The notes beneath the pieces were generated by a model that had not been told where the DNA came from, did not search any database, and saw nothing but the letters and a program-made list of their open reading frames with translations. Shown here piece after piece: positions 2,996 to 58,440 of a stretch of DNA of 64,000 nt (the first letter of the stretch is position 1; every line of letters begins with the position of its first letter). Origin of the DNA: Pseudomonadales bacterium (GTDB taxonomy: Bacteria; Patescibacteriota; Microgenomatia; UBA1400; PJMF01); the NCBI GenBank assembly GCA_020632265.1, contig JACKFW010000001.1:140223-204222 (forward strand). Reading direction: 5' to 3'. The translations under genes and the position numbers were made by a program.

Positions 2996-3340
2996 ATGAA
3001 TAATAATTTAATTAATGTAGATTACTTTAAAAAAGTGTTTTATAAATCTCTCTTACCGCTTGAAAAGATTAATGAGTTTTTATCAACATTAAATGCAGAA
3101 AATGTTGATCCGGTTACTGAAGTTTTAATTTCTATTTTCAATGTAAGAATTATTGATACTTTGTTGGAAGATTTTGATGACCTGGAGGATAAGAAACAAT
3201 TTTTACGGATGTGCCAAGATGATTTTCAAAACCCGAAAATACTAGACTTTCTTGTTGAAAAATTTCCAGGTAGTCAAGAAATAATTTCCGAAACTATTGA
3301 AAGAACTATTCTGTCGGCAAATAAATCTCTTTCCGACTAA
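2996..3340 (+). CDS. hypothetical protein
   Basis: ORF of 114 aa tightly coupled to the preceding ORF. Confidence 0.4.
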   Translation: MNNNLINVDYFKKVFYKSLLPLEKINEFLSTLNAENVDPVTEVLISIFNVRIIDTLLEDFDDLEDKKQFLRMCQDDFQNPKILDFLVEKFPGSQEIISETIERTILSANKSLSD

Positions 3341-3491
3341 GACTCATTAATTCAAAAAAATCGAATCTTGTTACTATTCAGTTCCAAATTGGTGGCCGAA
3401 AAGATGACGTCATGATCAATAAAGAACTTTTTACAAAAAACCATCATTATCGTATTCAATTATTGTCTTCATTGTAGTATCTTGTATTAGT

Positions 3492-3881
3492 ATGCTAATT
3501 ATTAATCTACATGTTGGCTCTCGCTATCCTATCAACCGGAAAAAACTTCGGCAAACAGCTCAACTGGTTTTAAAAGAAAACAATATTGAACATGCTCAAA
3601 TCGACATCTCAATCGTAGGAAAAAGAAAAATTAAAAAACTCAATGAATCCGAATTAAAACATGAGGGTGTCACTGACGTACTTTCATTCCCTCAGCACGA
3701 AAAAAATAATTTATATGACTTCCCACTTCCAGAGGGAATTCCACCACACCTAGGTGATGTTGTAATTAGTTTTCCAGAAGCAGTACAGAGTGCAAAACGC
3801 TACGGCAAACTTGTTGATGACCAACTTTGCTTTTATTTACAACATGGCATGATGCATTTACTGGGATATCATCATGATTAA
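3492..3881 (+). CDS. ybeY: rRNA maturation endoribonuclease YbeY
   Basis: C-terminal HGMMHLLGYHHD matches the YbeY H-x3-H-x5-H metal-binding motif. About 130 aa. Confidence 0.8.
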   Translation: MLIINLHVGSRYPINRKKLRQTAQLVLKENNIEHAQIDISIVGKRKIKKLNESELKHEGVTDVLSFPQHEKNNLYDFPLPEGIPPHLGDVVISFPEAVQSAKRYGKLVDDQLCFYLQHGMMHLLGYHHD

Positions 3882-3934
3882 AATTTTTCAAAGTTACAAT
3901 AAATTACCATTTATTAAACAAAGAAACAAAAATA

Positions 3935-8019: not shown

Positions 8020-9834
8020 TTACCTATTCCTTGCTTTATTTCGAGCATCTTTGTTGAGTAGTTTTTTACGAAGTCTTAAATTTATTGGAGTAACTTCAAG
8101 TAATTCATCATCATTGATGAAATCTAAACATCTTTCTAGGGTCATTTCAACTGGAGGTGCAATTTTTATCAAGAAATCACCGGCGGATCTGAAATTTGTA
8201 AGCTGTTTACCTTTAGTAACATTCATTTCCATGTCTTCTTGTTTTTTGTTAATTCCAATAATTTGACCTTCATAAACTGTCTGTCCAGGAATAACAAATG
8301 TATCACCTCTCTTTTGAATGGAGTCTAATGAGTAGGCAGTCGCAGAGCCACTTTCTGATGCTATTAAAACACCATTTCTCGATCTTTCAATAAAATCACT
8401 GGCTGGAAAATATCCCATGAATCTACTCGCAAATATACCATTACCTCTAGTTTTTGTTAGAATTTCACTTCTAAATCCAAGAAGATTTCTACTGGTTATT
8501 TCAAAAATCATCTTATTACTACCTTTTTCATTTGTAATTGAATCTTGCATCATTGCTCGACGTTTACCTAATTCCTCTACAATTATTCCTGTGTATGTAT
8601 TTTCAATTTCTATAGTGAGTTCTTCTACGGGTTCATAAGTTTTTCCATCAATTTCCTTTAAAATAACTTCGGGCTTACCTACCTCCAGCTCGTAGCCTTC
8701 TCGACGCATGTTCTCAATTAGAACTGCTAAATGTAACTCGCCCCTTCCAGAAACTATATAACCTGATCCATTTTCATTGGGATTAATTCTAAGTCCAATA
8801 TTTGTCTTTTTCTCCCGAAGCAATCTGTCACCAATTTGCCTGACAGTTGAAAATTCTCCTTCTCTACCTGAGAGCGGAGAAGTATTTGCTGCGATTTGAA
8901 TATTTAGTGTTGGTTCAGTTACTGTAATCATTGGATAACCAGTAAGATCGCTAGGATCTGTGGCTGTTTGACCAATTTTTACATCTGTCAAACCTGTTAA
9001 AGAAATAATGTCTCCAGGTGTACTTTCTGCAACCTCTATGGTTTCTAAACCCATACTTGCAAACACACCTTGAACTTTGTATTGACCAATTTTTTTATTT
9101 TCTTCAAGCAATGCAACTTGTTGGTTTGTTTTTACACTACCCTGCTGAACCTTACCAATGGCACGAATACCTTTATAAGTATCATACTCGATGTTTGAAA
9201 CCTGCATTTTAAAAGGCATGTCTACACGAGTTGTGGGAGCAGGCACTTCTTTGATAATCATTTCAAAAAGTGGATCAAGATTTGCTCTATCTTCAAATGA
9301 ATTTGGCATTTCTAACCAAGCTTTTCCTTCTCTTGCCACCGCATAAACAATTGGAAAATCTAACTGATAATCATGATTTGCTAGTTGTAAAAATAAATCT
9401 TCAATTTCTTGTCTGACTCGTTTCACTTCGGCATCTTTTCTATCAATTTTATTAATAACCACAAGCATTTTTAAATTATTTTCAAGTGCTTTTTCAAGAA
9501 CAAATCTTGTCTGTGGAAGAGGACCTTCAGCTGCATCAACAATTAATAATGCACCTTCTGCCATACTAATTACACGTTCAACTTCACCGCCAAAATCCGC
9601 ATGACCTGGAGTATCAATAATATTAATTTTGATATCACCATACATAACAGCGGTGGTTTTTGCCAAAATAGTAATGCCTCTTTCTCTTTCTTGATCATTA
9701 CTATCTAAAATAGTTGTTTGTTGCATTTCAGCTTGGTTACTACGAAAAGTGTCGGTTTGTTTCAACATTCCATCAACCAAAGTGGTTTTTCCATGGTCAA
9801 CGTGAGCGATAATTGCAATATTTCTAATTTCCAT
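8020..9834 (-). CDS. typA: translational GTPase TypA/BipA
   Basis: G1 AIIAHVDHGKTTL, G3 DTPGHADF and G4 NKIDR motifs. About 604 aa. Confidence 0.9.
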   Translation of the reverse strand: MEIRNIAIIAHVDHGKTTLVDGMLKQTDTFRSNQAEMQQTTILDSNDQERERGITILAKTTAVMYGDIKINIIDTPGHADFGGEVERVISMAEGALLIVDAAEGPLPQTRFVLEKALENNLKMLVVINKIDRKDAEVKRVRQEIEDLFLQLANHDYQLDFPIVYAVAREGKAWLEMPNSFEDRANLDPLFEMIIKEVPAPTTRVDMPFKMQVSNIEYDTYKGIRAIGKVQQGSVKTNQQVALLEENKKIGQYKVQGVFASMGLETIEVAESTPGDIISLTGLTDVKIGQTATDPSDLTGYPMITVTEPTLNIQIAANTSPLSGREGEFSTVRQIGDRLLREKKTNIGLRINPNENGSGYIVSGRGELHLAVLIENMRREGYELEVGKPEVILKEIDGKTYEPVEELTIEIENTYTGIIVEELGKRRAMMQDSITNEKGSNKMIFEITSRNLLGFRSEILTKTRGNGIFASRFMGYFPASDFIERSRNGVLIASESGSATAYSLDSIQKRGDTFVIPGQTVYEGQIIGINKKQEDMEMNVTKGKQLTNFRSAGDFLIKIAPPVEMTLERCLDFINDDELLEVTPINLRLRKKLLNKDARNKARNR

Positions 9835-9888
9835 AATTATTTCTAATTTCCATAACTATTTTGAGTTTCCATAGTTATTCTTAATTTA
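9832..9888 (-). repeat. three tandem, roughly 19-bp copies of the typA start region (ATGGAAAYT...TATGGAAATTAG)
   Basis: The minus strand reads ATGGAAACTCAAAATAGTT, then ATGGAAATTAGAAATAATT, then ATGGAAATTAGAAATATTG, the last being the typA start. This creates two 9-codon uORFs (METQNSYGN*, MEIRNNYGN*), each overlapping the next ATG. Confidence 0.7.
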
Positions 9889-10120
9889 AATTATTATTAC
9901 AAACTCTTAATTAAATAATCATAAATCTAAAAACTCGATACAATCTCTTGGATAGAGATTTAAGCGAGAGTTCTATAACATTCAACATGAAAATAAATTA
10001 ATCTTATGAACTTGCGAACGTTGTATTATACAACATTTATTAACACATTGCTCATTCCAATAAGATATTTTCATAGTAATTTTAGTTTATTGCTCAAGTT
10101 GGGTTGATTCTAAACATAAT

Positions 10121-11794
10121 TTGCACTACACTTTAGAAATGCAATTAACAAATAAAAACCCAATAGCTTATTTTTGTGCAGAATTCGGATTCGATAGTAA
10201 ATTACCAATCTATGCAGGAGGTCTAGGCGTTTTATCTGGAGATACTATTAAACAAGCTGCTGAAGAAAATCTACCATTTGTTGGTATTGGCTTACTTTAT
10301 CGAGGTTATGGAGTGGTTCAAAATGTTTCTGATGACGGCATGCAAACTGAATCAAATTATCCTTTTGACCCCACCACAATTGGTCTAGAACACGTCTACA
10401 AAGATGAAATGCCATTATTTATTAAAGTTCATATGACTGAAGTGGATGTTTGGGTACGATGCTGGAAAAAAACATTTTCCGAAAATGTAACTTTATATTT
10501 ACTTGATACTGAAACTGATCAAAATCTTCCAAATGAAAGAAGTATTACTTCTACTCTATATAGTGGTACTCAGGAGTCACTCTTAAAGCAACAAATAATT
10601 TTAGGTATAGGCGGAGTTAAACTATTAACCACCTTAGGAATTCATCCAGTAGTTTTTCACATGAATGAAGGTCGACCTAATTTTTTGCACTGGCAATTAA
10701 TTCGAGAAATGATGGACACTCATAATATTGACTATGAAACTGCCAAAAAAACTGCAAAAGAAAAAACAGTTTATACTAACCACACCTTAGTTGCAGCAGG
10801 AAACCAAGAGTATTCTATGGACTTATTAAATATTTTTTCAAAATATTATGCTGATAAAATGGGCATTACCAACGAAACACTATTGAAAGATGGCATAGAC
10901 AAAGACCCGAAGATGTTTTCTATCACAAAAGCTGCTTTAAACACGTCCTGTAGAGCAAATGGAGTAAGCAAGGTTCATTCAGACCTTTCAAAGAAAAATT
11001 GGCCAGAATATAACTGGACAAATATTACTAATGGTGTTCACTTGGGAACATGGCAAGAAAATACCATTAAGAATTCTGAGAATAACCTCGATGAGCTTTG
11101 GAGAAACCACCAAAATCAAAAAGTTGCTTTAGAAGCATTTGTTAAAGAAAAAACTGGATATGGTTATGATCCAAACACACTGGTTATTACTTGGGCACGT
11201 AGATTGGCTGGATATAAAAGATTAGATTTAGTTTTTCAGGATATTGAAAGACTACGAAGTATATTTAAAAACTCAAAAAGACCAATCCAACTTTTGGTTT
11301 CTGGAAAGGCTCATCAGGGCGATACTTTGGGAAAGCAGTTGCTACAAAAAATTATTGGCTACATGAAGCGCGAATTGGTTGGACACGCACTATATATCCC
11401 AAATTATAATATTGAAATTGCACAAATGCTGGTAAAAGGCTCCGATGTTTGGCTTAATACTCCAACCCCCGGTCAAGAAGCCAGTGGTACTTCTGGAATG
11501 AAAGCAATTAGTAATGGAATTTTAAATTTGACAACTGCGGAAGGTTGGGCGGCCGAAGTTGATTGGAATGGTATTGGTTGGGTGCTAGATAATAATAATT
11601 TGCCAAATGATCTTTATGAAAAACTTGAAAAGGAAGTAGCACCTCTTTTTTACTCTCGCAATGAAAATAATATTCCAGTAAATTGGTTGGAAATGATGCA
11701 AAAATCAATCAAATTGGCGGAAAATTTTAGCGCCGCTAGAATGTTAAAAGAATATCGAGAAAAACTTTACCTCTATGGCAATACAAAAATTTAA
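10121..11794 (+). CDS. glgP: alpha-glucan (glycogen/maltodextrin) phosphorylase family, GT35
   Basis: N-terminal IAYFCAEFGFDSKLPIYAGGLGVLSGD signature and PLP-lysine motif EASGTSGMKA. Confidence 0.8.
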   Translation: MHYTLEMQLTNKNPIAYFCAEFGFDSKLPIYAGGLGVLSGDTIKQAAEENLPFVGIGLLYRGYGVVQNVSDDGMQTESNYPFDPTTIGLEHVYKDEMPLFIKVHMTEVDVWVRCWKKTFSENVTLYLLDTETDQNLPNERSITSTLYSGTQESLLKQQIILGIGGVKLLTTLGIHPVVFHMNEGRPNFLHWQLIREMMDTHNIDYETAKKTAKEKTVYTNHTLVAAGNQEYSMDLLNIFSKYYADKMGITNETLLKDGIDKDPKMFSITKAALNTSCRANGVSKVHSDLSKKNWPEYNWTNITNGVHLGTWQENTIKNSENNLDELWRNHQNQKVALEAFVKEKTGYGYDPNTLVITWARRLAGYKRLDLVFQDIERLRSIFKNSKRPIQLLVSGKAHQGDTLGKQLLQKIIGYMKRELVGHALYIPNYNIEIAQMLVKGSDVWLNTPTPGQEASGTSGMKAISNGILNLTTAEGWAAEVDWNGIGWVLDNNNLPNDLYEKLEKEVAPLFYSRNENNIPVNWLEMMQKSIKLAENFSAARMLKEYREKLYLYGNTKI

Positions 11795-18031: not shown

Positions 18032-19888
18032 TTAAATGCTAATATATTCATAAACTAACATTCTTTGTAAATATGCTTCAATTTTTTTATATATTTGTTG
18101 GTCAGTCTTATAACCAGTTATTTCAAAATACTGAGCCAACAATACTATTGCAATATATGCCTCTACAGAAATATTAATTTTTTTTGAGTATTTTTTCTGC
18201 AATTTATCAATAATATTTTTCCTTTTTTTAGCAACATTTTCCTTAATATTAGTTATCAGTGGAGATGCTTTCCACTGAGTTGGATATAATAAAGTATTAT
18301 CAGATCCACTAAAACTAATTTCATCTAGAATAATTTTATTTTTAATTGCCTCAAGCCTATTATTTTTCATCAAAGTTAACACACTTGGTGAGTTTGGTGT
18401 AGCAAACACTCCAAAGGTTGCATAAATAATAGCACCCCTTGATAACCAGTATAAAGACTTTTCTGTCGTTAACCTAAGTGATTGATCTGTTTCAAATTGA
18501 TTAAATAACATCAAATTAATTTCTGGAGTAATACCAACTTCCAACATATAGCTTAATGATTCATTAATATTAGCATCAGAAAAATTATTTTTACTCAATC
18601 CAGATCTTACTGTTGAATCAAAACTTTCTACACCACAAGCAATTCGAACGAAATTTGCTTTAAATAATGCGTCTATCAACTCTTGATTGAACGAAGTAAT
18701 TCTCATTTTTCCATGCTTTGGTTGAATCAACCCATTCTTAACCATTTGACCACATAACCAAATCATTTTCTCTGGATCATTTGCTAAATCATTATTATTA
18801 AAAGAAATTACATCAGCATGTTTACCAATATCTAATAAATAGGCTAATTCTTGTTCTCTTGAGTTAAAAACTAAGTTTTTAGGAACAGCACAATATGAAC
18901 ATTTTTGACTACAACTATTATCTGACAAAACTTGAATTGAACCTGTTGCAACTCCATCAACAGAGACCGAATTGGCACTTGAATACATTTGTGGATGAAT
19001 TAAATCCAAATGGCCTTGTGGTATAAATTGATCTTTTGCCGTTTTTCTTGATTGTATGATTCTCTCTAAAATACTTTCCCAATTCTCATTAGTATATAAA
19101 TCTGGAAAATGTTTATGGGCAAATTGCCTTATACTATTTCTAGAAACATCTGTGTTATTGTGTAGGTATTTTGCCAATACTTCTAGCTCTTTAACAGCAT
19201 ATCCTGGAATGATTAAATCAACTGGTAGCACTTCATCTAAGCCTTTTCTCCCCGACATTGTTGGCAAATACTGCAAAGAATCACTGCCAATACCACCAAC
19301 AATTTTTCTTGAGTTTGGAAAAATTTTGTGTATTAACTCAAACAAACTAATATCGTTTCTTAAGTTTACTGGCAACATACTAAAACCAAAAACTACCTGA
19401 GATCCTGGTATTATAAATTCTGATATTTTTGTTAAAAGTTCAGTGGGAGAAGAAAACATATTTGGATCAATACAAAGCGTTGTTGCTTCTTGAGACTTTG
19501 CTAATAACCATTCAGATATTACCCACATACCTTCTGAAGGGACATTAGATGTCCATTCACTGTCTCCTAATAAGCCATAACTTGATATAAAAATAAACTG
19601 CACTGGATTTAAAATTAAATCATCTTTATTTAAAGAAGATGCAGTAAATTTATCAAGGCTTTTAATCTTAATATTAAAAAGCCTAACATTTTTTAATTCA
19701 GAAAATAATTGTAATAAATTAATCTTTTGCTTATCACTGATATGAACTTCATTATTTAATTGACGAACTGTAAGTACCCCATCAGTAATTGAAACTGTAA
19801 CTAAATGTACCTCACTGAAAGGTTTTTGTATATTTTCATACAGGAGATGATCTTCATATCGGCGATGATTTTCAACTGCTCTTTTCAT
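18032..19888 (-). CDS. B12-binding-domain-containing (class B-like) radical SAM protein
   Basis: CSQKCSYC = CxxxCxxC at about residue 335. N-terminal Rossmann-like region of about 300 aa. 618 aa. Confidence 0.65.
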   Translation of the reverse strand: MKRAVENHRRYEDHLLYENIQKPFSEVHLVTVSITDGVLTVRQLNNEVHISDKQKINLLQLFSELKNVRLFNIKIKSLDKFTASSLNKDDLILNPVQFIFISSYGLLGDSEWTSNVPSEGMWVISEWLLAKSQEATTLCIDPNMFSSPTELLTKISEFIIPGSQVVFGFSMLPVNLRNDISLFELIHKIFPNSRKIVGGIGSDSLQYLPTMSGRKGLDEVLPVDLIIPGYAVKELEVLAKYLHNNTDVSRNSIRQFAHKHFPDLYTNENWESILERIIQSRKTAKDQFIPQGHLDLIHPQMYSSANSVSVDGVATGSIQVLSDNSCSQKCSYCAVPKNLVFNSREQELAYLLDIGKHADVISFNNNDLANDPEKMIWLCGQMVKNGLIQPKHGKMRITSFNQELIDALFKANFVRIACGVESFDSTVRSGLSKNNFSDANINESLSYMLEVGITPEINLMLFNQFETDQSLRLTTEKSLYWLSRGAIIYATFGVFATPNSPSVLTLMKNNRLEAIKNKIILDEISFSGSDNTLLYPTQWKASPLITNIKENVAKKRKNIIDKLQKKYSKKINISVEAYIAIVLLAQYFEITGYKTDQQIYKKIEAYLQRMLVYEYISI

Positions 19889-25186: not shown

Positions 25187-26806
25187 TTATTTTATATAAG
25201 AATCAAAGTTTTCAGTGAGATCCCAAACTTGCAAACAAGGACCATCATAAGGCCTACAAAATTCAGCTATGAGATATTTACTGTTAATTTTAAGTAAGAG
25301 TCGGTGTGAATTAACTATTAGCCATTTTTTTTGATAGTTATTTGCTCTATCTGCAAAACTTTTTGGTAAAAACGAAACAGGTTGTCCTATACCCTCTAAA
25401 TAAAGATTATCTACATTTGTTCGATGTAAATACATTAATAAGCCATCAGGCAAAGTTCCAAAATATCCTTCAGTTGCAACCGCAAGCGTATTTTGTGTTG
25501 TTTCTTTCTCAATTAAATCAACAGTATCTTTAATCCCATGTCCAGAAGACCATTCAGTAAGATATTGAGTTATATCTGAAGAAACAAATGGTATTTTATT
25601 TGGTTCCAAGATTGAAAACTGAATGTAATTTGCACAAACAACAAATATATTTGCTAAAATCAAAGAAGTTGATACGCCAATCAATACTTTTTTCCAAAAC
25701 CTACTTTTCCCTTCAAATACATTATCCAAAAGACTTTCTAAACCCATTACAGCTGACAAGGTAAAAAAGAATGATGCTGGAAAAAGATATCTTGGATAGA
25801 CAGTTTTTCCCATTAAAGCTATGGGAAAAATAAATAATAGACCTGACCAAAACAACACATGAGAAATCAGTTGATTTTTTTTGGAAAACAAACCTATTAA
25901 TGCAAATATAATTATTCCAGGTGTTAAATAAATGTAAAAATAATATAAATAATTAGGAACATTCGAAACAGTGTAGAGCCATGACCCATTAAGCAAATCA
26001 GATATAGGAAACAGAAAATCTCCACCGCGACTAAATAATTGACCAAAAGTTGGATTAAGTTTTAATGAAAAGAACATAACTATGCCGATAGCAAGGCATA
26101 CAGAAACTTTTAAAAAACCTATGAATAATGTTTTAGTACTTTTATCCTTAGTTAGAAAGATGGATAAATATAAAGAAGGAATAAATAAAATTGCGGGAAT
26201 TTTTGTAAGAAGAGCCAGCCCAAAGAAGAATCCAGAAATTAAAATATTATTAACACTACTTTTGTCAAATACCGCTGAAACAATTGAAGTATTTTTTGTT
26301 AAAGTTAGTGATTTTTTTGAGTTAAAAACTTTAACTAAAAATAAATATGAAATTGAAATTAATAAAGCTAGTAAACCATCCATTAGGGCCATTTGATGAT
26401 GAAAATACCAGAAAGGTAAAACTATAGTGAAAATTCCCATCAATAATTGAGTTGATTTTTTTCCACCCAAACATTTTACAACATCCATATTTACAAAAAC
26501 CTGAATCAACCCCACTAAAACAGCTAAAAATCTTCCTGCAAACAATTGGTCTTTAAAAATATATTGAAAAGGAACTAATAACCAAATAAACAAGGGAGTC
26601 TTGCCGTCGTTCATTGAAAAAAACAGATACCTCTTCCAATCATCAATAATTAATTGAGCCCATCTAATATATATAGATTCATCCGCAAATACTGGTAACC
26701 TAGTTAAGGCGAATAAATGAATGAAAAAATATATAAGAATTAACCCTATGTATAAAGATATACTAAGTTTATTTTTTACAATAAATTTTTGTAATTTTTT
26801 AAGCAT
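25187..26806 (-). CDS. GT-C fold membrane glycosyltransferase (PMT/ArnT-like)
   Basis: FADESIYIRWAQ loop-1 DE motif. Polytopic. 539 aa. Confidence 0.6.
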   Translation of the reverse strand: MLKKLQKFIVKNKLSISLYIGLILIYFFIHLFALTRLPVFADESIYIRWAQLIIDDWKRYLFFSMNDGKTPLFIWLLVPFQYIFKDQLFAGRFLAVLVGLIQVFVNMDVVKCLGGKKSTQLLMGIFTIVLPFWYFHHQMALMDGLLALLISISYLFLVKVFNSKKSLTLTKNTSIVSAVFDKSSVNNILISGFFFGLALLTKIPAILFIPSLYLSIFLTKDKSTKTLFIGFLKVSVCLAIGIVMFFSLKLNPTFGQLFSRGGDFLFPISDLLNGSWLYTVSNVPNYLYYFYIYLTPGIIIFALIGLFSKKNQLISHVLFWSGLLFIFPIALMGKTVYPRYLFPASFFFTLSAVMGLESLLDNVFEGKSRFWKKVLIGVSTSLILANIFVVCANYIQFSILEPNKIPFVSSDITQYLTEWSSGHGIKDTVDLIEKETTQNTLAVATEGYFGTLPDGLLMYLHRTNVDNLYLEGIGQPVSFLPKSFADRANNYQKKWLIVNSHRLLLKINSKYLIAEFCRPYDGPCLQVWDLTENFDSYIK

Positions 26807-28124
26807 GATCTATTTTTGTCCATATTTTAGTCTTAATATTTGTAAATAGATATATTAATGGTATTATCCATACAATTAATGTTTGATTGGCAATAATTTT
26901 TGGACTATATTCCAAACCATTAAACAACCATGGCAAATATCTTAAACTTGAACTGACAGTAAATACTAAAAGTAAGTTGCGAAGTTTTTTCATTTTCATG
27001 AACGGCAACCAAACAAGCACCCAAATAAAATACCAAGGATAAAATTGATGCGATCTAGGAGTAAATAACAGAAGCATCATAATGGTAGCTGCTAAATCTG
27101 GAATATAAAAAATCCATTTATTAACAATTATGAAAAATATTTTATCTATGAAATTTTGATCAATATTTATTTTAAATCTGCGCTTCACGATTTTTGCAAG
27201 TCGATAATAAAAAAGATAAATTAATAAAACTAAAAACCAAATTGGCAACAAAGCTAGCGTCGCATATTTAATTGAAATAGAAATAGAAAGGAAAAGAATT
27301 GAAACCAAAAAATATTTAACTTTTAAATAATTGTCGCTTATTTGAGAAGTAATCGGCTTAATTAAGAAACTCAATCCATAAATTGCAAAAGGCATCATTA
27401 ATAAGTCATTGTGATAATTTGAAATATATTCTATTAAGAAAAATGGATTTAAAAACACCATTGCACTTTCGTAAAGGTTCATCCGTCTTTTAAATAATGT
27501 CATGGAAAAATTTTGCATTGAAAAATATAAAAGAATCATACATAAATAGCTCCAGACTCTAAAAGCAGCGAGAGTTAAAGAAAATTTGCCAAAACCTAAA
27601 TAATAGGGAATTAAAGTAAAGTAAGTCCATCCTCTTCCGTATACATCAGTGACATTGGTGTTATGCATAAATCTAATCCAAAGGTCATTGGGAAAATCAA
27701 GCGCTGTATAAAGTTTTGTGTCTACCCCATATTTTGCAATCATCCTGGCATAAAAAATATAATTAAAAACGTCGTGAGATAATGAATTATATGAAAATGC
27801 AATTGGAGCAATAATTACTAAAAAGATTAAAACATATTTATTAAAAAATATTTTTTTTAAATTTACCTTTTTTGATTTTAACTTTTTTAGTATATAAAAA
27901 TATAAAATAAATAATGAAATTATTAAGAAAAGATAAATATATCCTGTCAATATTGAGTTGTGAAAAAATGTTTTCCACATGAAGTTTTGAAATTTCCAAT
28001 AAATATCATTTGAAGTCAAAACCAAATTGGGATCCACCAAACTATATGAAAATATTGAATATATCAATAAAATTATAAAATACAAAATAAATACTGTCAT
28101 TAAAATCTTATTTATATTTACCAA
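26799..28124 (-). CDS. polytopic membrane protein, possible GT-C-like glycosyltransferase
   Basis: About 12 TM segments with no soluble domain. Sits inside the glycosylation cluster. Confidence 0.35.
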   Translation of the reverse strand: MVNINKILMTVFILYFIILLIYSIFSYSLVDPNLVLTSNDIYWKFQNFMWKTFFHNSILTGYIYLFLIISLFILYFYILKKLKSKKVNLKKIFFNKYVLIFLVIIAPIAFSYNSLSHDVFNYIFYARMIAKYGVDTKLYTALDFPNDLWIRFMHNTNVTDVYGRGWTYFTLIPYYLGFGKFSLTLAAFRVWSYLCMILLYFSMQNFSMTLFKRRMNLYESAMVFLNPFFLIEYISNYHNDLLMMPFAIYGLSFLIKPITSQISDNYLKVKYFLVSILFLSISISIKYATLALLPIWFLVLLIYLFYYRLAKIVKRRFKINIDQNFIDKIFFIIVNKWIFYIPDLAATIMMLLLFTPRSHQFYPWYFIWVLVWLPFMKMKKLRNLLLVFTVSSSLRYLPWLFNGLEYSPKIIANQTLIVWIIPLIYLFTNIKTKIWTKIDHA

Positions 28125-28903: not shown

Positions 28904-30448
28904 CTACTCTCTTCTCAATACTGTTATTTCTGGGCCATTTTCTACTTCATAGACCTCACTAGGGATTTTATTGGGGAAAACGACAATTTCATAAATTGGG
29001 GAATCAACAACATTTGTTAAAACTCTATCATCATTAATAATAAAGAGCGTATCGATATTGCCTCGATCTTCATCTACTACTGGTGGATTATTTGTTGCAC
29101 TCAAAAAATACCGATAATTTTGACCTTCAATGTCACCTGTTCCAGTCAGTAAAATAATATTATATTTTTCATTTTGCTTAACTCTACTGGTAATTGTATC
29201 CACGGCTCGCTGGATGTCTACAATTCTGCCTCCGGTGTCTGACATTACAATTTTCATTAAAGGTAGATTGTATTTTAAAAAGAAAAAAATAAATACTAAT
29301 ATAAGAAATTTTCCCAAAATTCCTTTTTTATATAAATAATCCCCAGTAATTCCTAATGTTAAAAAAGTAATTGGAAATAAATATGCTACGTAGTGATCAT
29401 AGATAGTATGTTGATAAAATCCAATTAAAAATATCCCAGAAAAAAGAAAAGTAAAAATAATATTTATTCCATACTTATATTTTTTCCGCTGATCAACTTT
29501 TAATTCTCTAAAATTTAAGAAAAGTAGTATTAAAATGATTGCTAAGAAAACCAAATTAATTTGATTATTCTGGCCAAGAGGAATATCAACTAAGATGTGT
29601 CTTGCTTCCTTTTGTGTATCTCGAACATATTCACTAAGCCTGCCTTTTAAATCAGTTGATGTTTGCTCAAAGCTATCTTCACCGACTAAAATATTCTGAA
29701 AAGCTTTAAAATTTAAAGCATCGTGTTTTAAATCAAATAGTACGAGTGGCAAAATCGAGGTAAAAAATATAACCGCTCCTACCGCTGTTGCAAAAAACAT
29801 TTTCTTCACCAATTTTTTGTCATTAAACCTAGAGATAAGTTGCCAGAGCCAAATTAATCCTATTCCAGCGCTTGATAATAAAGTTAGATAATGTAGTTGA
29901 ATCAATACGCTAAATAATAAAATTACTATTGCCCAATACTTCACGTCACTTTTTATTGCCTTAAATATGGCATAAATCATTAATAAAGATATCAATGGCG
30001 CTGGATTAGGATTCCAGCTAAACCTCGTAAATGAAACCACTATCGCTGAAAACGCCATTAATGTTGCAGCAAAAAGAGCTGCTCTTTCTCCCACCATTTC
30101 TTTACCTAAAACATACATTAAATAGATGGTCAATAATCCTAAGAAAGCCACGGCATAAACCGGACCAAGAGGACTTGGATAAGATAACATTAGAAAAGGA
30201 ACCATAAAATAATAATAGAGAGGCCCAAGATACATGTTGCCAACGCTAGTAACTGGACCAATAAAAACTAAGTCATGATTCTTAAATATCTTTGAAACAA
30301 TTAAAGCATCCCTACCTTGATCGCCAAGAAATTGCACTGAGTTGGGAATGTTCCAAAATCTTACGAATGTAGCCAATAGCAACACTAAAATAAATAAGTA
30401 ATGTCTTATTTCCATTTTTTTTGGAAATCCAGGAAAATTCATCTTCAT
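28904..30448 (-). CDS. GT-C fold membrane glycosyltransferase (GT39-like)
   Basis: Polytopic N-terminal region with an FLGDQGRDA loop, plus a C-terminal soluble domain. 514 aa. Confidence 0.55.
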   Translation of the reverse strand: MKMNFPGFPKKMEIRHYLFILVLLLATFVRFWNIPNSVQFLGDQGRDALIVSKIFKNHDLVFIGPVTSVGNMYLGPLYYYFMVPFLMLSYPSPLGPVYAVAFLGLLTIYLMYVLGKEMVGERAALFAATLMAFSAIVVSFTRFSWNPNPAPLISLLMIYAIFKAIKSDVKYWAIVILLFSVLIQLHYLTLLSSAGIGLIWLWQLISRFNDKKLVKKMFFATAVGAVIFFTSILPLVLFDLKHDALNFKAFQNILVGEDSFEQTSTDLKGRLSEYVRDTQKEARHILVDIPLGQNNQINLVFLAIILILLFLNFRELKVDQRKKYKYGINIIFTFLFSGIFLIGFYQHTIYDHYVAYLFPITFLTLGITGDYLYKKGILGKFLILVFIFFFLKYNLPLMKIVMSDTGGRIVDIQRAVDTITSRVKQNEKYNIILLTGTGDIEGQNYRYFLSATNNPPVVDEDRGNIDTLFIINDDRVLTNVVDSPIYEIVVFPNKIPSEVYEVENGPEITVLRRE

Positions 30449-36072: not shown

Positions 36073-37494
36073 CTATTTCTTTCTTTCAATGACTCTAAGA
36101 CTTAATTCATCTAGCTGAGCTTGAGACACCTGAGCAGGTGCATCCATTACCGCAGTTTTCCCAGATGAAGTCATAGGAAAAGCAATTACTTCTTTAATTG
36201 ATGTTTCTCCTGCTAAAATCATAACCAAGCGATCAAGACCCAGAGCAATACCACCATGAGGTGGAGTACCAACTTCAAAAGCTTCTAACATATGACCTAT
36301 ACTAGAATTGATCTGATCATCAGAATAACCCATTATTTTAAAAGTTGCTCTCAAAACCTCTGGCCTATGTGCTCTTATGCTTCCACCACCAGCTTCGTAT
36401 CCATTGCAGACTAAATCATATTGAGCAGTTACAATTTTATCAATGTTTTTTCCCTTTAAATGCCATTCTAAATGCTCTTCCAACGGTGTGCTGAAAGGAT
36501 TATGTGTAAACGTCCAACCGCTTTTTCCATCTTGAACTTCTGCTTGGTCATCTTTATCAACTTTTTTGAAAAAAGGAAATTTTACAACCCAGGCAAAAGC
36601 TAAAGTTCCATTGGTTTTTTCTTCTTCAGTTCTAAGATCAAATTTGTCTGCGCCAAATTGTTGAATTGCTTGATCATAGGTAAAAACTGGAAATTTTTCA
36701 TCTTTAATTTTTCCACCCACAGCTTTGACTGCATATTTGGTCATATCCTCAACTATGCTCATTACTTCATCTTGAGTCACGAAGCTTGTTTCTATATCCA
36801 ACTGAGTAAACTCAAAACCTCGATCAGATCTTAAATCCTCATCTCTAATACATTTTGCAACTTGAAAATAATTCTCTACACCAGCCGTCATTAAAAGCTG
36901 TTTATATTGTTGTGGACTCTGTGGCAAAGCATAAAATTTTCCAGCTTGAAAACGAGAAGGAACAATAAAATCTCGAGCTCCCTCTTTTGTAGCCAAAGAT
37001 AATAAGGGAGTCTCAACTTCAATAAATTCTTTTTCAAATAAATACTCCCTAAAACTTTGGATTAACTTAGATCTTAATATGAGATTTTTTCTCATTCTGT
37101 TGCGTCTCAAATCAAGATATCGGAATTTTAATCTAACTTCCTCTTTAACATCATAGGCATCACCCTCAACTTGAATTGGTAACTCTTTTGATGGATTTAA
37201 GATTTGGTATTCGCTAACCTCCATCTCCACCACACCCGTTTCAATCTCTTTATTGATCATTTTTTCAGGTCTATCTTTGATCGTACCAAATACAGATATA
37301 ACCGACTCCGTAGTCAAATCACCCATCATTTTAAAACCAACACATTGAATTGTTCCAGAACGATCTCTTAAATCAATAAAAGTTATTTTTCCATGGTCTC
37401 TTTTGGTTTCAACCCAACCTTTTAATAAAACTTTTTTACCAGAAAGTTTTGGTGTTTCTTTAACTAAAGTTCTTTTTATTGTTATTTCTGACAT
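36073..37494 (-). CDS. aspS: aspartyl-tRNA synthetase, bacterial-type core without the GAD insertion domain
   Basis: QSPQQYKQLLMTAGVENYFQVAKCIRDEDLRSDRGFEFTQLDIETSF nearly matches the E. coli AspRS motif 2 region. Only 473 aa. Confidence 0.9.
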   Translation of the reverse strand: MSEITIKRTLVKETPKLSGKKVLLKGWVETKRDHGKITFIDLRDRSGTIQCVGFKMMGDLTTESVISVFGTIKDRPEKMINKEIETGVVEMEVSEYQILNPSKELPIQVEGDAYDVKEEVRLKFRYLDLRRNRMRKNLILRSKLIQSFREYLFEKEFIEVETPLLSLATKEGARDFIVPSRFQAGKFYALPQSPQQYKQLLMTAGVENYFQVAKCIRDEDLRSDRGFEFTQLDIETSFVTQDEVMSIVEDMTKYAVKAVGGKIKDEKFPVFTYDQAIQQFGADKFDLRTEEEKTNGTLAFAWVVKFPFFKKVDKDDQAEVQDGKSGWTFTHNPFSTPLEEHLEWHLKGKNIDKIVTAQYDLVCNGYEAGGGSIRAHRPEVLRATFKIMGYSDDQINSSIGHMLEAFEVGTPPHGGIALGLDRLVMILAGETSIKEVIAFPMTSSGKTAVMDAPAQVSQAQLDELSLRVIERKK

Positions 37495-37537
37495 AATTCA
37501 CCCTTTTTATGATTTATTACAATATTTTCAGGGCAAT

Positions 37538-37790
37538 AAAAAAACACGTTGCCCCTTAATAATTTGAAAGGGCTCTACGTGTTTGCGTAAGAGCGGTACC
37601 ACCTGTCTTTTTACTTGATTCCAGCGATTACGGGCTTACCCGACTTGTTCTACTAACTTCTCCAATTTTGATTTAAAAAAGTTTTCTTCAAGCAACGCGG
37701 CTAATCTCTAGCACTCGTCTGGTGTCAACAAACTAATATGCGTTTTTAAAAAAATTTCTTAAGAGTAATTATAACCTAAATTGACTAAAG
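37538..37790 (-). promoter_or_regulatory. T-box riboswitch-like leader of aspS with promoter, T-box sequence and terminator
   Basis: On the minus strand: TTAACA-17-TATAAT promoter; AGGUGGUACCGC matches the T-box consensus AGGGUGGNACCGCG; terminator ACACGTAGAGCCCTT..AAGGGGCAACGTGT+U7; alternative GCUCU/AGAGC antiterminator pairing. GAC triplets are present in the putative stem I. Confidence 0.5.
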
Positions 37791-37807
37791 TGTTAAGCGA
37801 TAAAATA

Positions 37808-39493
37808 TTAAGTGCTAATGACATAATTTTTTATATCTTTAAGTGAGGTCTGAACTGATCTTGTTCCGTTCCAAATATTCAACTCAAGAGAACCAATGAT
37901 AGAAATCCTATCACCAACATTAAATTTATCCATTAAATTACCCATCTTCCAGCCAACAGCTTTTAAAACATCTGAGCTCATTTTATCTTTGCCAGAAAAA
38001 ATTAACACTAATCTTAAATGGTTATTATCATCTCCCATCTGGAATATATTTTTTATTACTAAATCCTTAATTTCAAACATAGGCTTCCGATTTCCCTGAC
38101 CAAATGGCTCAAATTTGTCAATCATTTGAATGGTTTCTTCAGTCAATAAATTTTTTGAGAGAATACACTCAGCCTCAATGCATTTTTCCAAACTTTCTTT
38201 AAAAATAGTTTCTTTTGCCAACTTAAATAGCTTTGATTTAATTGTTTCAAGCTTCTTAGATTCAAACCCAAAACCTGCTGCCATTGGATGACCACCAACC
38301 TCAATCAAGTCATCCTTAATTATTCTAAGTAAATCTACAATATTCACACCAGGAACGGACCTCGCCGATGCTTTTGCAAATTTTCCATCAATGTTAATAG
38401 CAATTGAAGGTTTGTTAAATTTTTCCAGCATTGAACCTGCAATCAAGCCCAAGATACCTTCATGATAATTTTCAGAATGAACTATTAAAATGTGCTCGGT
38501 TCTAATTTTCTCAATCTGATTTTTGGCATCATCTAGTAACTCATAAGTCAAATTCTTTCGTTGATCATTTGTATCTAATAGTACACTTAATAATCTTGTT
38601 GCCTGAGAACTACTTTTAGTACACAAAAATCTTAATGCAACAATTCCTTCAGCCATTCTTCCCATCGCATTAATTCTAGGAGCAATAATATATCCAATCG
38701 AATCTGAATTTATTTGATTAACGTCTTTGATGGTATTTTTCAACAATAACTTTAATCCAATTCGTTGAGAATTTTTTATTGCTTCTATACCAAATTTAGC
38801 AAAACTTCTATTTGCACCAGTTAATTTAACCTGATCAGCAATAGTTGCTATACCACATAAATCTAAAAGTTCCTTTGAAAGATTTGGATTTATCTCTCTT
38901 GCTAACATCCATGAAACAGTTGCTCCACATAATTTTGTTGAATGAATAATATAATTTGCATTAGGAAATATAGGTTTGCCTAGTTCAAATTCTGGTTGGT
39001 GATGATCAGTAATAATCACATCAATATTTTGGTTTCTTAAGTATGCAACAGGTTTATGAGCAACAATACCATTATCAACAGAAATAACTAAATCTGGTTT
39101 CTTATCTAAAATAATATCATCTATTGCCTTAATAGAAATCCCGTATCCATGTTTTTTTCTATTAGGAATAAAAGGCTTTACATTACAACCAAAATCATAA
39201 AGAGTTTGCCAAAGTATTGCAGTAGCACAAATTCCATCGGCATCATAATCACCAAATATGACTATGTATTGATTATTTTTTTTAGCTTTTTTAATCCTTT
39301 TTAACACAGATTTAATCTGTTTTTCATCAATTTCTACATTTTTCAAACTAATTTCCAAAGGATAAATTGGTTCAAAGAAGTTTTCATCACGATCATCAAT
39401 TGATCTATTATCTAAAATTATCTTACGTAAATCGGCTAAATTGGAAGGAATCTTTGTATTTTTTAATAACCATTTCATACATATAATATACAA
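37808..39493 (-). CDS. recJ: single-stranded-DNA-specific exonuclease RecJ
   Basis: DHH family motifs (GDYDADGICA, ITDHH) and DHHA1 region. 561 aa. Confidence 0.85.
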   Translation of the reverse strand: MYIICMKWLLKNTKIPSNLADLRKIILDNRSIDDRDENFFEPIYPLEISLKNVEIDEKQIKSVLKRIKKAKKNNQYIVIFGDYDADGICATAILWQTLYDFGCNVKPFIPNRKKHGYGISIKAIDDIILDKKPDLVISVDNGIVAHKPVAYLRNQNIDVIITDHHQPEFELGKPIFPNANYIIHSTKLCGATVSWMLAREINPNLSKELLDLCGIATIADQVKLTGANRSFAKFGIEAIKNSQRIGLKLLLKNTIKDVNQINSDSIGYIIAPRINAMGRMAEGIVALRFLCTKSSSQATRLLSVLLDTNDQRKNLTYELLDDAKNQIEKIRTEHILIVHSENYHEGILGLIAGSMLEKFNKPSIAINIDGKFAKASARSVPGVNIVDLLRIIKDDLIEVGGHPMAAGFGFESKKLETIKSKLFKLAKETIFKESLEKCIEAECILSKNLLTEETIQMIDKFEPFGQGNRKPMFEIKDLVIKNIFQMGDDNNHLRLVLIFSGKDKMSSDVLKAVGWKMGNLMDKFNVGDRISIIGSLELNIWNGTRSVQTSLKDIKNYVIST

Positions 39494-55783: not shown

Positions 55784-57049
55784 ATGAATGTAGAAAAAAC
55801 TCCCAAACATATTATTCGAGCCGTAGTTGATACTCTCCAAGAATGCAACCTTAGATGCCAGTACTGTCACCCGGGTCATACCTGGGAAAAGAAACACTTG
55901 TCAGCTAATCTTATAGAACAAACACTTAGTGAGGCAGAGCAACGTGGTTTATTAGAAGTTACTTTAACTGGTGGAGAAATCACACTCCATCCCGAATTGG
56001 TAAAAATCTTGGAGTCAACTCAAGTTTTAGATCGTACAGTTTCAACTCTCATTACTAATGGCACAACCATGACCCCTGAATTAGCTAGACAGTTTCGTGA
56101 TTCTAACGTTTCCAGAATTTGTACCAGTATCGATGGCCCAGATGCCGGTACACATAACACATACAGGGGAAACTCATTTGACAGAGCAATAAATGGCTTG
56201 CGTTTACTGCAAGAAACGGGAAAACCAATTACCGTTATCACTGTTGCCCACCACAAAAACTACGAGCATGTTCTTGAACTAAGTAATCTCCTTGCCAAAG
56301 AAGGACTCGCGGCAGAACATCACATCTGTGCTCCATCATATTCTGGTACTGCCAAAGATAACTATGAAGAATTTAGATTGAGACAAGAAGAGTTTTTTGC
56401 TCTGCAACAAATGGTAGATGATTCATATCAGGATTTAAAAAACCAAGGATTGTTTGTTACTTTCAACTCTTTTTGGCCCGCTACTGGAGAAAGAGCAAAA
56501 ACCAATAACTCCAGGACAATTACTCTAGTTCAGTTAACAGAACAGCTAAAAGATTGCTATATCATCGTCCGTCCAAATGGTGACGTTAGGCTAACTGCTG
56601 CTGCATGGGGAAGAGAAACTATTGGTAATGCAGTAACGGGAAATCTTCATACTGACAGCGTTAAAATCGCTCTTAATCAAGCTGAACAAATATACAATCA
56701 AGGTTTAGTGAAGCAACTTCCAAGAGAGATCGAGGCTGTTCACAAATTTCATTACGGGAAAGATGTCAATCCTGCAATAACCAATAAGATACTTAGTGAT
56801 AAAGAAAGTGGTGCCGGTTTAGTTCAAATGGTACCAATTAAGCCACTCTCGGAGTCAGATCTGTTCCAGATACCTCTTTCCGAAGAACAAATGCTGTCTA
56901 TTGCGAGCAATCTCCAAATGCAACCAGACAGATACAGGCTTGTTAACATTGCTGGCAATTCATACGTACTGTTTGATAGGCTGACAACCCACATTACTCT
57001 TCTCAAGCCTGAGGAAGTGCTTATGATTGTTGGCTTAGGAAGTCACTAA
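55784..57049 (+). CDS. radical SAM domain protein
   Basis: CNLRCQYC = CxxxCxxC at residue 21, and TLTGGE glycine-rich SAM motif. 421 aa. Higher GC than its surroundings. Confidence 0.8.
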   Translation: MNVEKTPKHIIRAVVDTLQECNLRCQYCHPGHTWEKKHLSANLIEQTLSEAEQRGLLEVTLTGGEITLHPELVKILESTQVLDRTVSTLITNGTTMTPELARQFRDSNVSRICTSIDGPDAGTHNTYRGNSFDRAINGLRLLQETGKPITVITVAHHKNYEHVLELSNLLAKEGLAAEHHICAPSYSGTAKDNYEEFRLRQEEFFALQQMVDDSYQDLKNQGLFVTFNSFWPATGERAKTNNSRTITLVQLTEQLKDCYIIVRPNGDVRLTAAAWGRETIGNAVTGNLHTDSVKIALNQAEQIYNQGLVKQLPREIEAVHKFHYGKDVNPAITNKILSDKESGAGLVQMVPIKPLSESDLFQIPLSEEQMLSIASNLQMQPDRYRLVNIAGNSYVLFDRLTTHITLLKPEEVLMIVGLGSH

Positions 57050-57051
57050 AT

Positions 57052-58440
57052 ATGCCTTTAAAAGAAGTTGACACAAGACTTCTAAGGGCGCTAAGTGAAT
57101 ACAGAGCTTTTGTTAGCGCTCTAGCCATTGAAACTGGCCAGCGATCCTTAATTAGAGATATCATACTTAGCGAGCCTTCTACTACATCTGCTAAAATTAT
57201 GAAGGCTGTGGGGATTTCGGCCGAGGAGTTAGTAAAAATCTATCGAGACTTGCAAACGGATGAAGAATTTCAGTTAGCAGTCAACTCTCCTTACTATTCT
57301 CGCCGTCTCATGTTTAATGTCGCGCGAACAGTCGTGCATGATCTGGCCTCTGACTCTGATTATACTCAGAGATTGATCTCAGGAGATCCAGTATCTTCAA
57401 GAGTAGTTGAACTTCATACAACCAAAGGAACTTGTAACTACAACTGTGTGATGTGCTTATGGTCAGATAAAGGGGAACGTACCTATGACACAGCTCAGAT
57501 GAAGGGTTTTGGCTTAATGCAAACTGAGGAATGGAAAAACACTTTAGCAACCATCCGCGAGTTTGGTACCAAAGTAGCTGTTTTTTCTGGTGGAGGTGAA
57601 GTATTGCTGAATAAGGATTTTTTCAGATTGCTGGCGTTCTCACATTCGGTTGGTCTGAAAACCCAGCTCTATACTAGTGGATACAACATGACCCATCTTG
57701 AGGAGGAAGAGTGGGGAGAATTGTTGAACATGGATCGAATTAGATTTAGCATACACTCATCAAATGAGGGCACATACAATGATATTGTTAGTATGCCAGA
57801 ACACGCTCATGCACTCACTAAAGTTGACAACAACTTAAAGTTATTATTAGAGAAACGAAATATCGTAGGCTCCGATTTAAAAATAGGTATTGGATTCGTG
57901 ATACAGCCACTAAATACAATGCAGGTAGAGGATATTGTTGAGTTTGCAAAAAGGACTGGAGTGGACTATCTCAACATCCGCCGGGATGAAATTTTAGTAA
58001 CCAATCCTCTGGATCAAGAATCAGAAGTCGAGCTCAGAAAGCAGTTATTACGCATTAGACAAAACATTGTTAATGGCGTTTATGGGAATTTAGAAATTGA
58101 TTTTTCGGACAATTTAGTTGCATTTATGAACGAGGAGAAATACTTACTACCTCAAGTGCCACAATGTGTTATCAAACACTTTAGACCCACTATTAATCCG
58201 TATGGTCTGTGGAATTCGTGTGATCTTAAAGGTGAACCAATGTATGCGGATCCAGATTTTGTGATTGGTGATCTACATCAGGATGGTGTTGTAAAAATTT
58301 TGGCTCGCACACAGCAAACAACTATCCCTGCAGCATGTACAAGTTGTATGCCCAGTGGTCAAACTGGAAATGCTATTTTCACTAAATTACTTCAAGATCA
58401 CGCTTTGGGGATTGATTTTAAAGATCAGCCATTTTTTTAA
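57052..58440 (+). CDS. radical SAM domain protein with an N-terminal extension of about 110 aa
   Basis: CNYNCVMC = CxxxCxxC at about residue 128, and FSGGGE. Start lies 2 nt after the preceding stop, consistent with an operon. Confidence 0.8.
   Translation: MPLKEVDTRLLRALSEYRAFVSALAIETGQRSLIRDIILSEPSTTSAKIMKAVGISAEELVKIYRDLQTDEEFQLAVNSPYYSRRLMFNVARTVVHDLASDSDYTQRLISGDPVSSRVVELHTTKGTCNYNCVMCLWSDKGERTYDTAQMKGFGLMQTEEWKNTLATIREFGTKVAVFSGGGEVLLNKDFFRLLAFSHSVGLKTQLYTSGYNMTHLEEEEWGELLNMDRIRFSIHSSNEGTYNDIVSMPEHAHALTKVDNNLKLLLEKRNIVGSDLKIGIGFVIQPLNTMQVEDIVEFAKRTGVDYLNIRRDEILVTNPLDQESEVELRKQLLRIRQNIVNGVYGNLEIDFSDNLVAFMNEEKYLLPQVPQCVIKHFRPTINPYGLWNSCDLKGEPMYADPDFVIGDLHQDGVVKILARTQQTTIPAACTSCMPSGQTGNAIFTKLLQDHALGIDFKDQPFF

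Follow-up and report, generated by a model that had tools for sequence, protein, structure and literature searches.

A predicted tRNA-Asp-sensing T-box with a short Stem I and an intrinsic terminator upstream of aspS in a Patescibacteria genome

In a 64-kb stretch of contig JACKFW010000001.1 (the window), the gene for aspartyl-tRNA synthetase (AspRS), aspS, is preceded by a leader that is very probably a T-box riboswitch that senses tRNA-Asp and acts by transcription attenuation. The leader is on the minus strand and falls within the 313 nt that separate the stop of recJ (37808) from the start of aspS (37494). It combines a short Stem I, with an aspartate codon in the apical loop, and a T-box sequence whose antiterminator competes with a terminator hairpin. 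A preliminary description of this region, made from its letters, had proposed a T-box-like leader; here we report how well that proposal fits the anatomy, conservation and gene context of the element, and how the element compares with T-boxes described elsewhere.

Results

Conservation and covariation of the leader

Leaders were drawn from two samples, whose loci are referred to by L numbers. The first, an AspRS search of GTDB species representatives, gave 80 loci with AspRS proteins 42-80% identical to that of the window. Those with informative titles are Patescibacteria, Paceibacterota or 'Pacebacteria' metagenome-assembled genomes (NCBI phylum Minisyncoccota), and the reduced-genome host of the window is itself a member of the Patescibacteria. 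The second was a gene-independent metagenome scan with a pattern made of the pseudoknot core and the T-box bulge, which recovered 120 loci. These include leaders with a canonical long Stem I, ileS leaders of high-GC Actinobacteria that belong to the known short type (for example CCGG-CCAUCA-CCGG-GGAGC) and many low- to mid-GC leaders with a short hairpin. Forty-one non-actinobacterial short-Stem-I leaders were tabulated, and the open reading frames (ORFs) downstream of them were annotated with NCBIfam. The metagenome loci (L081-L200) are probably Patescibacteria, judging from their low GC content and the similarity of their leaders.

In the closest relatives of the window, GGUGGCACC is found upstream of aspS at a similar distance. 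The leaders of ten relatives were aligned without the window, five helices comprising 21 pairs were annotated, and a model (R1) was built from this alignment. R1 found the window leader at 72.5 bits (E about 9e-16; 37568-37747, minus strand), which was its sole hit in 64 kb, and 15 of the 80 related genome loci gave a hit upstream of aspS. Pairing in the alignment reached 92.6% of cells compared with 78.5% in shuffles (0/500 shuffles reached the observed value), and fell to 29-51% in a control in which the 3′ partners were slid by 1-3 columns. Compensatory double changes were seen in 13 of the 21 pairs.

The individual helices behaved similarly. Stem I is a hairpin of 4-6 bp in the aspS relatives, and all five of its pairs covary. 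Pairing in Stem IIA is 100%, with a single compensatory change, and in IIB 87%, with the variants AGC/GCU, UGC/GCA, GGC/GCC and AGA/UCU. In the antiterminator, pairing reaches 100% in A1 and 92% in A2, with four covarying pairs. Unaided, RNAalifold recovered Stem I, IIA, A1, the bulge and A2 from the relatives. In addition, the GAC-A loop, the UGGNACC bulge and the overlap between terminator and antiterminator are strictly kept across AspRS proteins that are 50-80% identical. On this comparative evidence the aspS leader appears to be a genuine, conserved T-box, and the proposal of a T-box before aspS with competing terminator and antiterminator is borne out.

Anatomy of the aspS leader

The elements of the leader are listed in Table 1. 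The sigma70-like promoter, the match to the T-box consensus, the terminator of about 13 bp with U7 and the alternative GCUCU/AGAGC pairing that had been put forward in the preliminary description are all present on the minus strand, and transcription is predicted to start near 37761.

Table 1. Features of the aspS leader and of genes in the window
Feature	Position	Strand	Details
sigma-70-type promoter	37768..37796	-	TTAACA (37796-37791), 17-nt spacer, TATAAT (37773-37768); 11/12 consensus positions
Three-way junction, Stem I base	37695..37743	-	P0 + Stem I + hairpin Ia
Short Stem I	37717..37733	-	GUUUG-UUGACAC-CAGAC; 5 bp, 7-nt apical loop
Stem II with S-turn	37644..37692	-	CUUG / AAGAA / 11-bp upper helix, 7-nt loop / AGUAGAA / CAAG; upper helix from minimum free energy fold
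Stem IIA/B pseudoknot with F-box	37623..37642	-	CGG-GUAAGC-CCG-UAAUC-GCU
Purine-rich linker	37605..37622	-	GGAAUCAAGUAAAAAGAC; 18 nt at the Stem III position, no helix
T-box and antiterminator	37569..37604	-	A1, 7-nt bulge, A2
Intrinsic terminator	37538..37582	-	5′ arm 37582-37568; 3′ arm 37557-37544; U7 37544-37538
Post-terminator element and Shine-Dalgarno sequence	37498..37536	-	UUGCCCU (37536-37530); Shine-Dalgarno AGGGUGA (37504-37498); ATG at 37494
aspS, predicted regulated gene	36073..37494	-	473-aa bacterial-type AspRS without GAD insertion domain
recJ	37808-39493	-	flanks the leader gap opposite aspS
gltX	608-2044	+	TIGR00464, 530 bits

Below Stem I, helix P0 (ACGC, 37743-37740, with GCGU, 37698-37695) encloses Stem I and hairpin Ia (GCUA-GAGAU-UAGC, 37712-37700), with a 5′ linker AUAUUA and a 3′ linker GAGU. 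The same layout of P0, Stem I and Ia is fully paired in seven leaders with differing helix sequences: P0 occurs as ACGC/GCGU, UGCGC/GCGCA, UACGU/ACGUA and AGCC/GGCU, and the variants of Ia include GCUA/UAGC, GUUGGA/UCCAAC and GUUCAA/UUGAAC. This three-way junction occupies the position of the kink-turn (K-turn), of which GA is kept on the 3′ strand only, and it may resemble a k-junction. A K-turn with the C-stem CGC/GUG at the base of Stem I was also considered and was dropped; only the pairing of P0 (ACGC/GCGU) and Ia is kept across the seven leaders.

The trinucleotide GAC occurs twice in the leader. The relevant copy (37726..37724) fills positions 3-5 of the 7-nt Stem I loop and is followed by the conserved purine A (37723), and the loop reads NN-GAC-A-N in 12 aspS leaders. 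Thus, the GAC specifier that had been suspected in Stem I is present, whereas the canonical internal specifier loop and K-turn expected with it are not: the codon sits in an apical loop on a 5-bp hairpin, a junction stands at the stem base, and both the distal platform and Stem III are missing.

Stem II carries the two S-turn strands, AAGAA (37688-37684) and AGUAGAA (37654-37648). The strands GAAGAA and AGUAGAAC are common to actinobacterial ileS leaders and to 21 of the 41 short-Stem-I leaders, and Stem II with its S-turn is kept in the window and in the distant loci L051 and L074 (GAAGAA/AGUAGAA). In L001, L015 and L107, the closest relatives of the window, Stem II is a mini-hairpin of 2-3 bp without S-turn strands (GCCUUAAUAAGC, GCUGUAAAAAGC and GGUAUUUUAGCC), and these leaders are even more minimal T-boxes than that of the window.

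In the pseudoknot, IIA is formed by CGG and CCG, the F-box is CCGUAA, and IIB pairs the loop AGC with the downstream GCU, a geometry that agrees with the Rfam consensus CGg-uuauuu-cCGUUA. The linker that follows still has the purines that flank Stem III (AAGUA...AAAAGA), while Stem III itself is entirely deleted when the window is aligned to Rfam. The F-box and the T-box are 26 nt apart in the window. A gap of 29 nt or less, which leaves no Stem III, was found in 29 of the 41 short-Stem-I leaders compared with 8 of 91 other T-boxes recovered with the same pattern.

Competition between antiterminator and terminator

The T-box sequence AGGUGGUACCGC is located at 37604..37593 on the minus strand, where the conserved consensus (AGGGUGGNACCGCG) is matched by CAGGUGGUACCGCU (37605-37592). 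In the antiterminator, A1 pairs AGG (37604-37602) with CCU (37571-37569), the 7-nt bulge is UGGUACC (37601-37595), and A2 pairs GCUCU(U)ACG with CGUAGAGC, its core being GCUCU (37594..37590) with AGAGC (37576..37572). The terminator has the arms ACACGU-AGA-GCCCUU and AAGGGGC-A-ACGUGU, which form 6+7 bp with a small internal loop and a 9-nt apical loop before U7. A simple terminator scan gave no hit, as the apical and internal loops exceed the limits of the scan; folding recovers the hairpin. Its 5′ arm (37582-37568) takes in the 3′ strands of both antiterminator helices, so the two folds are mutually exclusive. By explicit evaluation the antiterminator has an energy of -8.7 kcal/mol, compared with approximately -15.5 to -19 kcal/mol for the terminator, and termination would therefore be the default state.

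The U7 run lies 43 nt upstream of the ATG, apart from the Shine-Dalgarno (SD) sequence. Downstream of it, UUGCCCU can form a 7-bp hairpin with the SD sequence (-6.8 kcal/mol) and could also base-pair with AGGGGCAA, the 3′ arm of the terminator. L015, L107, L013 and L022 have small CCU...AGG hairpins as well, but L001 does not. The weak SD-masking hairpin could provide a second, translational fail-safe layer, although its membership of the switch is uncertain. Alternatively, the leader might be a translational (class II) T-box that works by masking the SD sequence, with the terminator hairpin and its U-run being incidental. The short Stem I with apical loop, the S-turn Stem II and the pseudoknot are all in common with that class, the -6.8 kcal/mol hairpin can mask the SD sequence, and its 5′ strand could pair with the terminator 3′ arm. 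However, the fold that excludes the antiterminator is a GC-rich hairpin of 13 bp with U7, which lies 35 nt upstream of the SD sequence and does not include it. Moreover, equivalent hairpins with runs of U5-U7 recur in most aspS leaders (10 of 13) and in roughly 30 of all 41 leaders with a short Stem I, whereas the SD-masking pairing is not conserved in L001, the closest relative. We therefore consider translational control as the main mode of action quite unlikely.

Specifier codons in 41 short-Stem-I leaders

Across the 41 leaders, the codon in the Stem I loop fits the downstream gene without exception (11 codons, 10 amino acids). AUC precedes ileS (13 leaders), UCC or AGC serS (4), GUC valS (2), UGG trpS (2), AAG class I lysS (2), UUC pheS (1), CGC argS (1) and GCC alaS (1). 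GAC precedes aspS in 12 leaders and an archaeal-type phosphoenolpyruvate carboxylase gene in one, and the Asn codon AAC precedes aspS in two (L002, whose AspRS is GAD-less, and L100, whose AspRS has the GAD domain). The codon occupies loop positions 3-5 in 6- and 7-nt loops (31/41), which is the geometry of an anticodon loop, and a purine directly after the codon is readable in 40 of the 41, the exception being L182 (C). At the other end of the tRNA, the bulge base N agrees with the expected discriminator base in 38/41, with the expected bases taken from textbooks. Such concordance between codon and gene, and between bulge and discriminator base, holds across families and argues most strongly for GAC at 37726-37724 as the specifier.

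Two loci with a GAC loop extend the gene context. In L146 (~9000-10628, plus strand) the short-Stem-I T-box lies upstream of the archaeal-type phosphoenolpyruvate carboxylase gene (TIGR02751, 493 bits), and from its position it would place oxaloacetate/aspartate supply under the control of tRNA-Asp. In L005 (1582-3007, plus strand) the T-box precedes, in tandem, an archaeal-type aspartate--tRNA(Asn) ligase gene (NF003483, 469 bits vs a cutoff of 353) and a bacterial-type aspS without GAD. The bulge of the L005 T-box is part of UUGGC-UGGCACC-UUGGA-GCCAA; an A2 helix is not obvious there, and an outer AAGACC/GGUCUU helix that is followed by a U-run encloses the bulge.

These leaders escape the standard T-box model. 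None of 13 short-Stem-I leaders that were run against Rfam RF00230 (L001, L015, L013, L022, L009, L086, L107, L104, L173, L103, L150, L126 and L122) passed its gathering score of 93: the best reached 67, 55, 42 and 34 bits, and nine, the aspS leaders among them, went unreported at E<0.5. We tentatively suggest that the aspS leader may be one of a large, unannotated class of minimal terminator T-boxes in Patescibacteria-like genomes, which in the present sample would cover at least 10 amino acids and have an apical specifier without a platform, with approximately 70% of members lacking Stem III, about half lacking the S-turn Stem II and some having junctions in place of the K-turn.

Proposed mechanism and points against it

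In the mechanism that we propose, transcription would begin at the TTAACA/TATAAT promoter, and the anticodon GUC of tRNA-Asp would pair with GAC at loop positions 3-5 of the 5-bp Stem I. The S-turn of Stem II, which the IIA/B pseudoknot and the three-way junction below Stem I would hold in place, would clamp the codon-anticodon duplex as in actinobacterial ileS leaders, a role taken from PMC7583486. The leader would also have to make up for the missing platform and Stem III. If tRNA-Asp is uncharged, its 3′ NCCA would pair with UGGU in the bulge and stabilise the weak antiterminator, resulting in read-through into aspS. If tRNA-Asp is charged or absent, the stronger terminator with its U7 would form and transcription would stop.

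Several observations weigh against this proposal. RF00230 found no T-box in the whole window at its gathering threshold, and the 25.2 bits from a permissive local search stay far below it; in favour of a T-box, that search aligned the leader end to end (model positions 1-219; E=0.0011 in a 501-nt search). The A2 closing pair, assigned by inspection, is G-C in the window and not the G-U of the aminoacyl sensor, and UA stands on the 5′ strand below Stem I where a K-turn needs GA. The bulge reads UGGU in the window vs UGGC in all 11 other Asp-specifier and both Asn-specifier aspS leaders. As tRNA-Asp normally has G73, UGGU would meet the usual discriminator base in a G-U wobble. The tRNA genes of the 64 kb are tRNA-Gln(CUG) and tRNA-Glu(CUC), with no tRNA-Asp gene among them. 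The proposal also assumes that terminators of this kind function in Patescibacteria. Finally, the interdigitated double T-loop motif (IDTM, the distal platform of Stem I) and Stem III are both missing, though both are called required in PMC7583486, where Stem III, along with the purines that flank it, is described as indispensable for binding the tRNA 3′ end.

Such losses might indicate a decayed, non-functional T-box or a chance resemblance, with aspS being constitutive or attenuated without tRNA. The missing IDTM, Stem III, canonical K-turn and G-U sensor pair, the sub-threshold Rfam score and the absence of the leader from 65 of the 80 related aspS loci would fit a remnant. By contrast, every helix shows compensatory covariation, the loop, the bulge and the terminator-antiterminator overlap are strictly maintained, and relics would not be expected to show, across families, codons that suit their genes and bulges that suit the discriminator base. 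A remnant or a chance resemblance is thus highly improbable. The preliminary description had named an insignificant Rfam score together with elements that cannot be folded as grounds for rejecting a T-box; the score is indeed far below threshold, but the elements fold and covary.

In another reading, the leader would be an ordinary class I (Firmicutes-type) T-box with a long Stem I, K-turn, internal specifier loop and distal platform. It does have a terminator, the Rfam model aligns over its full length, and AGAGA is found in the hairpin Ia loop. Yet the alignment earns 25 bits against the required 93 and deletes the 70-nt upper Stem I of the model. It also puts UGA of the Stem I loop into the K-turn, and was not used for the anatomy given here. 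Comparison across leaders puts GAC in the apical loop of a 5-bp hairpin that covaries, AGAGA in hairpin Ia is not conserved, and there is no distal loop of the GNUGGNA type. An ordinary class I architecture is scarcely credible, and a tRNA-Asp-responsive attenuator built on a short Stem I is the reading that we favour.

The AspRS enzyme and transamidation

AspRS of the window has only an OB anticodon-binding domain (PF01336) and a class II core (PF00152). It is of the bacterial type (NF001750, 576 bits with a cutoff of 443; TIGR00459, 501 bits with a cutoff of 374) and falls below the cutoffs of the archaeal, non-discriminating NCBIfam models. When compared with PDB 4o2d, residues 15-292 and 297-464 of the query align and flank residues 313-434 of 4o2d, i.e. 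about 122 residues are replaced by about four where the GAD insertion lies between motifs 2 and 3. Bacterial-type AspRS structures (E. coli 1c0a/1eqr, Thermus 1efw and Mycobacterium 4o2d/4rmf) were the best PDB matches, as bacterial models were in NCBIfam; the OB domain and core align with them throughout, while the GAD domain of approximately 120 aa is missing from the window protein. Thus, the description of a 473-aa bacterial-type enzyme without GAD was accurate. The same GAD-less length was found in all 80 Patescibacteria relatives retrieved.

The lack of GAD had also been taken as a sign of a non-discriminating AspRS in an organism that uses transamidation. Under this proposal the enzyme charges tRNA-Asn as well, and Asn-tRNA is made by GatCAB. 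The AAC specifier before the aspS genes of L002 and L100 implies that those two AspRS proteins serve tRNA-Asn, PDB relatives annotated as Asp/Asn were among the top matches, and no asnS was found in the window. On the other hand, the specifier of the window is GAC and not AAC, and the GAD-less form is universal among the 80 relatives. Fourteen more distant Patescibacteria loci (L026, L028, L033, L035, L036, L037, L039, L044, L048, L053, L069, L071, L073 and L077) have an ORF with the AsnRS signature WYLDLRxYGSVPHSGFG within 3 kb upstream of a GAD-less aspS, and the two that were scored (L026 and L048) are AsnRS by NCBIfam (534 bits vs a cutoff of 414). The GAD-less aspS of L005 is likewise paired with a separate archaeal-type aspartate--tRNA(Asn) ligase. 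Searches of the 64 kb for asnS and gatCAB (tblastn, motif searches and NCBIfam, the last for 21 of the 33 ORFs that have at least 280 aa) found neither, including no gatA/gatB motifs, which is a weak negative in a genome of about 1 Mb. Lack of GAD is therefore not a rule for non-discrimination, and although the window enzyme might be non-discriminating, we lean towards doubting it.

The AAC leader of L002 belongs to a gene (3004-4866, plus strand), which encodes a 620-aa GAD-less AspRS with a C-terminal editing domain of the YbaK/ProX type (PF04073, 101 bits). To our knowledge, no such fusion of AspRS with an editing domain has been reported. One may speculate that this domain deals with mischarged Asp-tRNA(Asn).

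Other features of the window

The window has a GC content of approximately 31%. Its gltX gene showed no T-box signal in the 607 nt upstream with Rfam, the custom model or a motif search, so not every synthetase gene of this 64-kb piece is under T-box control. Two adjacent radical-SAM ORFs at 55784-58440 (plus strand), with weak SPASM/MoaA-like and DesII-like matches, make up the sole clearly higher-GC segment (0.386 vs about 0.31). Four large ORFs (441-618 aa) at 18032-19888, 25187-26806, 26799-28124 and 28904-30448 (minus strand) had no NCBIfam match at E<1e-10, and three of these lie within one minus-strand block.

Discussion

The window leader and about 30 to 40 leaders like it join a short Stem I to an intrinsic terminator, often without Stem III, so that the minimal needs of co-transcriptional tRNA sensing become testable on an RNA of 180 nt. 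If this class does work co-transcriptionally, a Stem I platform for fast tRNA capture would not be a general need of transcriptional T-boxes, and Stem III would not be generally indispensable for sensing the tRNA 3′ end. Short-Stem-I leaders are missed by RF00230 and hence are absent from standard annotations; as all 13 that were tested went undetected, synthetase regulation in candidate-phyla bacteria is probably under-annotated. As to the enzyme, a bacterial AspRS without GAD is usual in this lineage and is, on its own, no marker of the transamidation route.

Comparison with known T-boxes

In transcriptional T-boxes, Stem I is long and grips the tRNA elbow with a distal platform, which is thought to be needed for loading the tRNA before the polymerase meets the terminator (PMC7583486). 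Apical-loop specifiers, by contrast, belong to the short Stem I of translational, mostly actinobacterial T-boxes, which act as slow, reversible switches in Actinobacteria, and a short Stem I together with a terminator is an atypical pairing according to reviews of the field (PMC7583486). TBDB follows the same split with its class I and class II models, and class II was searched only in Actinobacteria (PMC7778990). The literature that we searched holds no description of T-boxes in Patescibacteria or candidate phyla radiation lineages, or of metagenomic short-Stem-I T-boxes. This is not proof of novelty, and the class may already be described in literature outside that search.

A T-box on aspS has a precedent in Clostridium acetobutylicum, in which one of three aspS genes is T-box regulated (PMC2494555). 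The specifier in the window is Asp, and the C. acetobutylicum leaders are class I elements in Firmicutes. Saad et al. are said to have described, in 2012, an Asn-specific T-box in C. acetobutylicum that controls a non-discriminating AspRS and GatCAB; this case is a parallel to the AAC leaders of L002 and L100.

With class I T-boxes in general (RF00230; B. subtilis tyrS and glyQS) the window leader shares the specifier codon, the UGGN bulge, an antiterminator opposed to a terminator with a U-run, the sequence AGGUGGUACCGC and a synthetase gene downstream. The long Stem I with its internal specifier loop, the platform of AG bulge and distal loop, the K-turn and Stem III are missing or altered.

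The closest described relatives of the window leader are the translational T-boxes of actinobacterial ileS (M. tuberculosis and Nocardia farcinica; TBDB class II), whose Stem I is short or 'ultrashort' and depends on Stem II and the pseudoknot, as Stem I of the window leader presumably does. Both have a short Stem I with an apical specifier followed by a purine, no elbow-binding platform, GAAGAA/AGUAGAAC S-turn strands and a UGGNACC bulge (anatomy from PMC7583486), and the IIA/B pseudoknot and F-box are nearly identical (CGGGUAAGCCCGU). The actinobacterial elements are distinguished by SD sequestration, ileS as their gene (AUC), high-GC hosts, a canonical K-turn and Stem III. The window leader instead has a terminator with U7, an Asp specifier (GAC), a three-way junction, no Stem III and a G-C closure of A2, and is found in a Patescibacteria genome of 32% GC. 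By its predicted architecture it is a short-Stem-I, Stem-III-less, terminator-coupled variant of the T-box.

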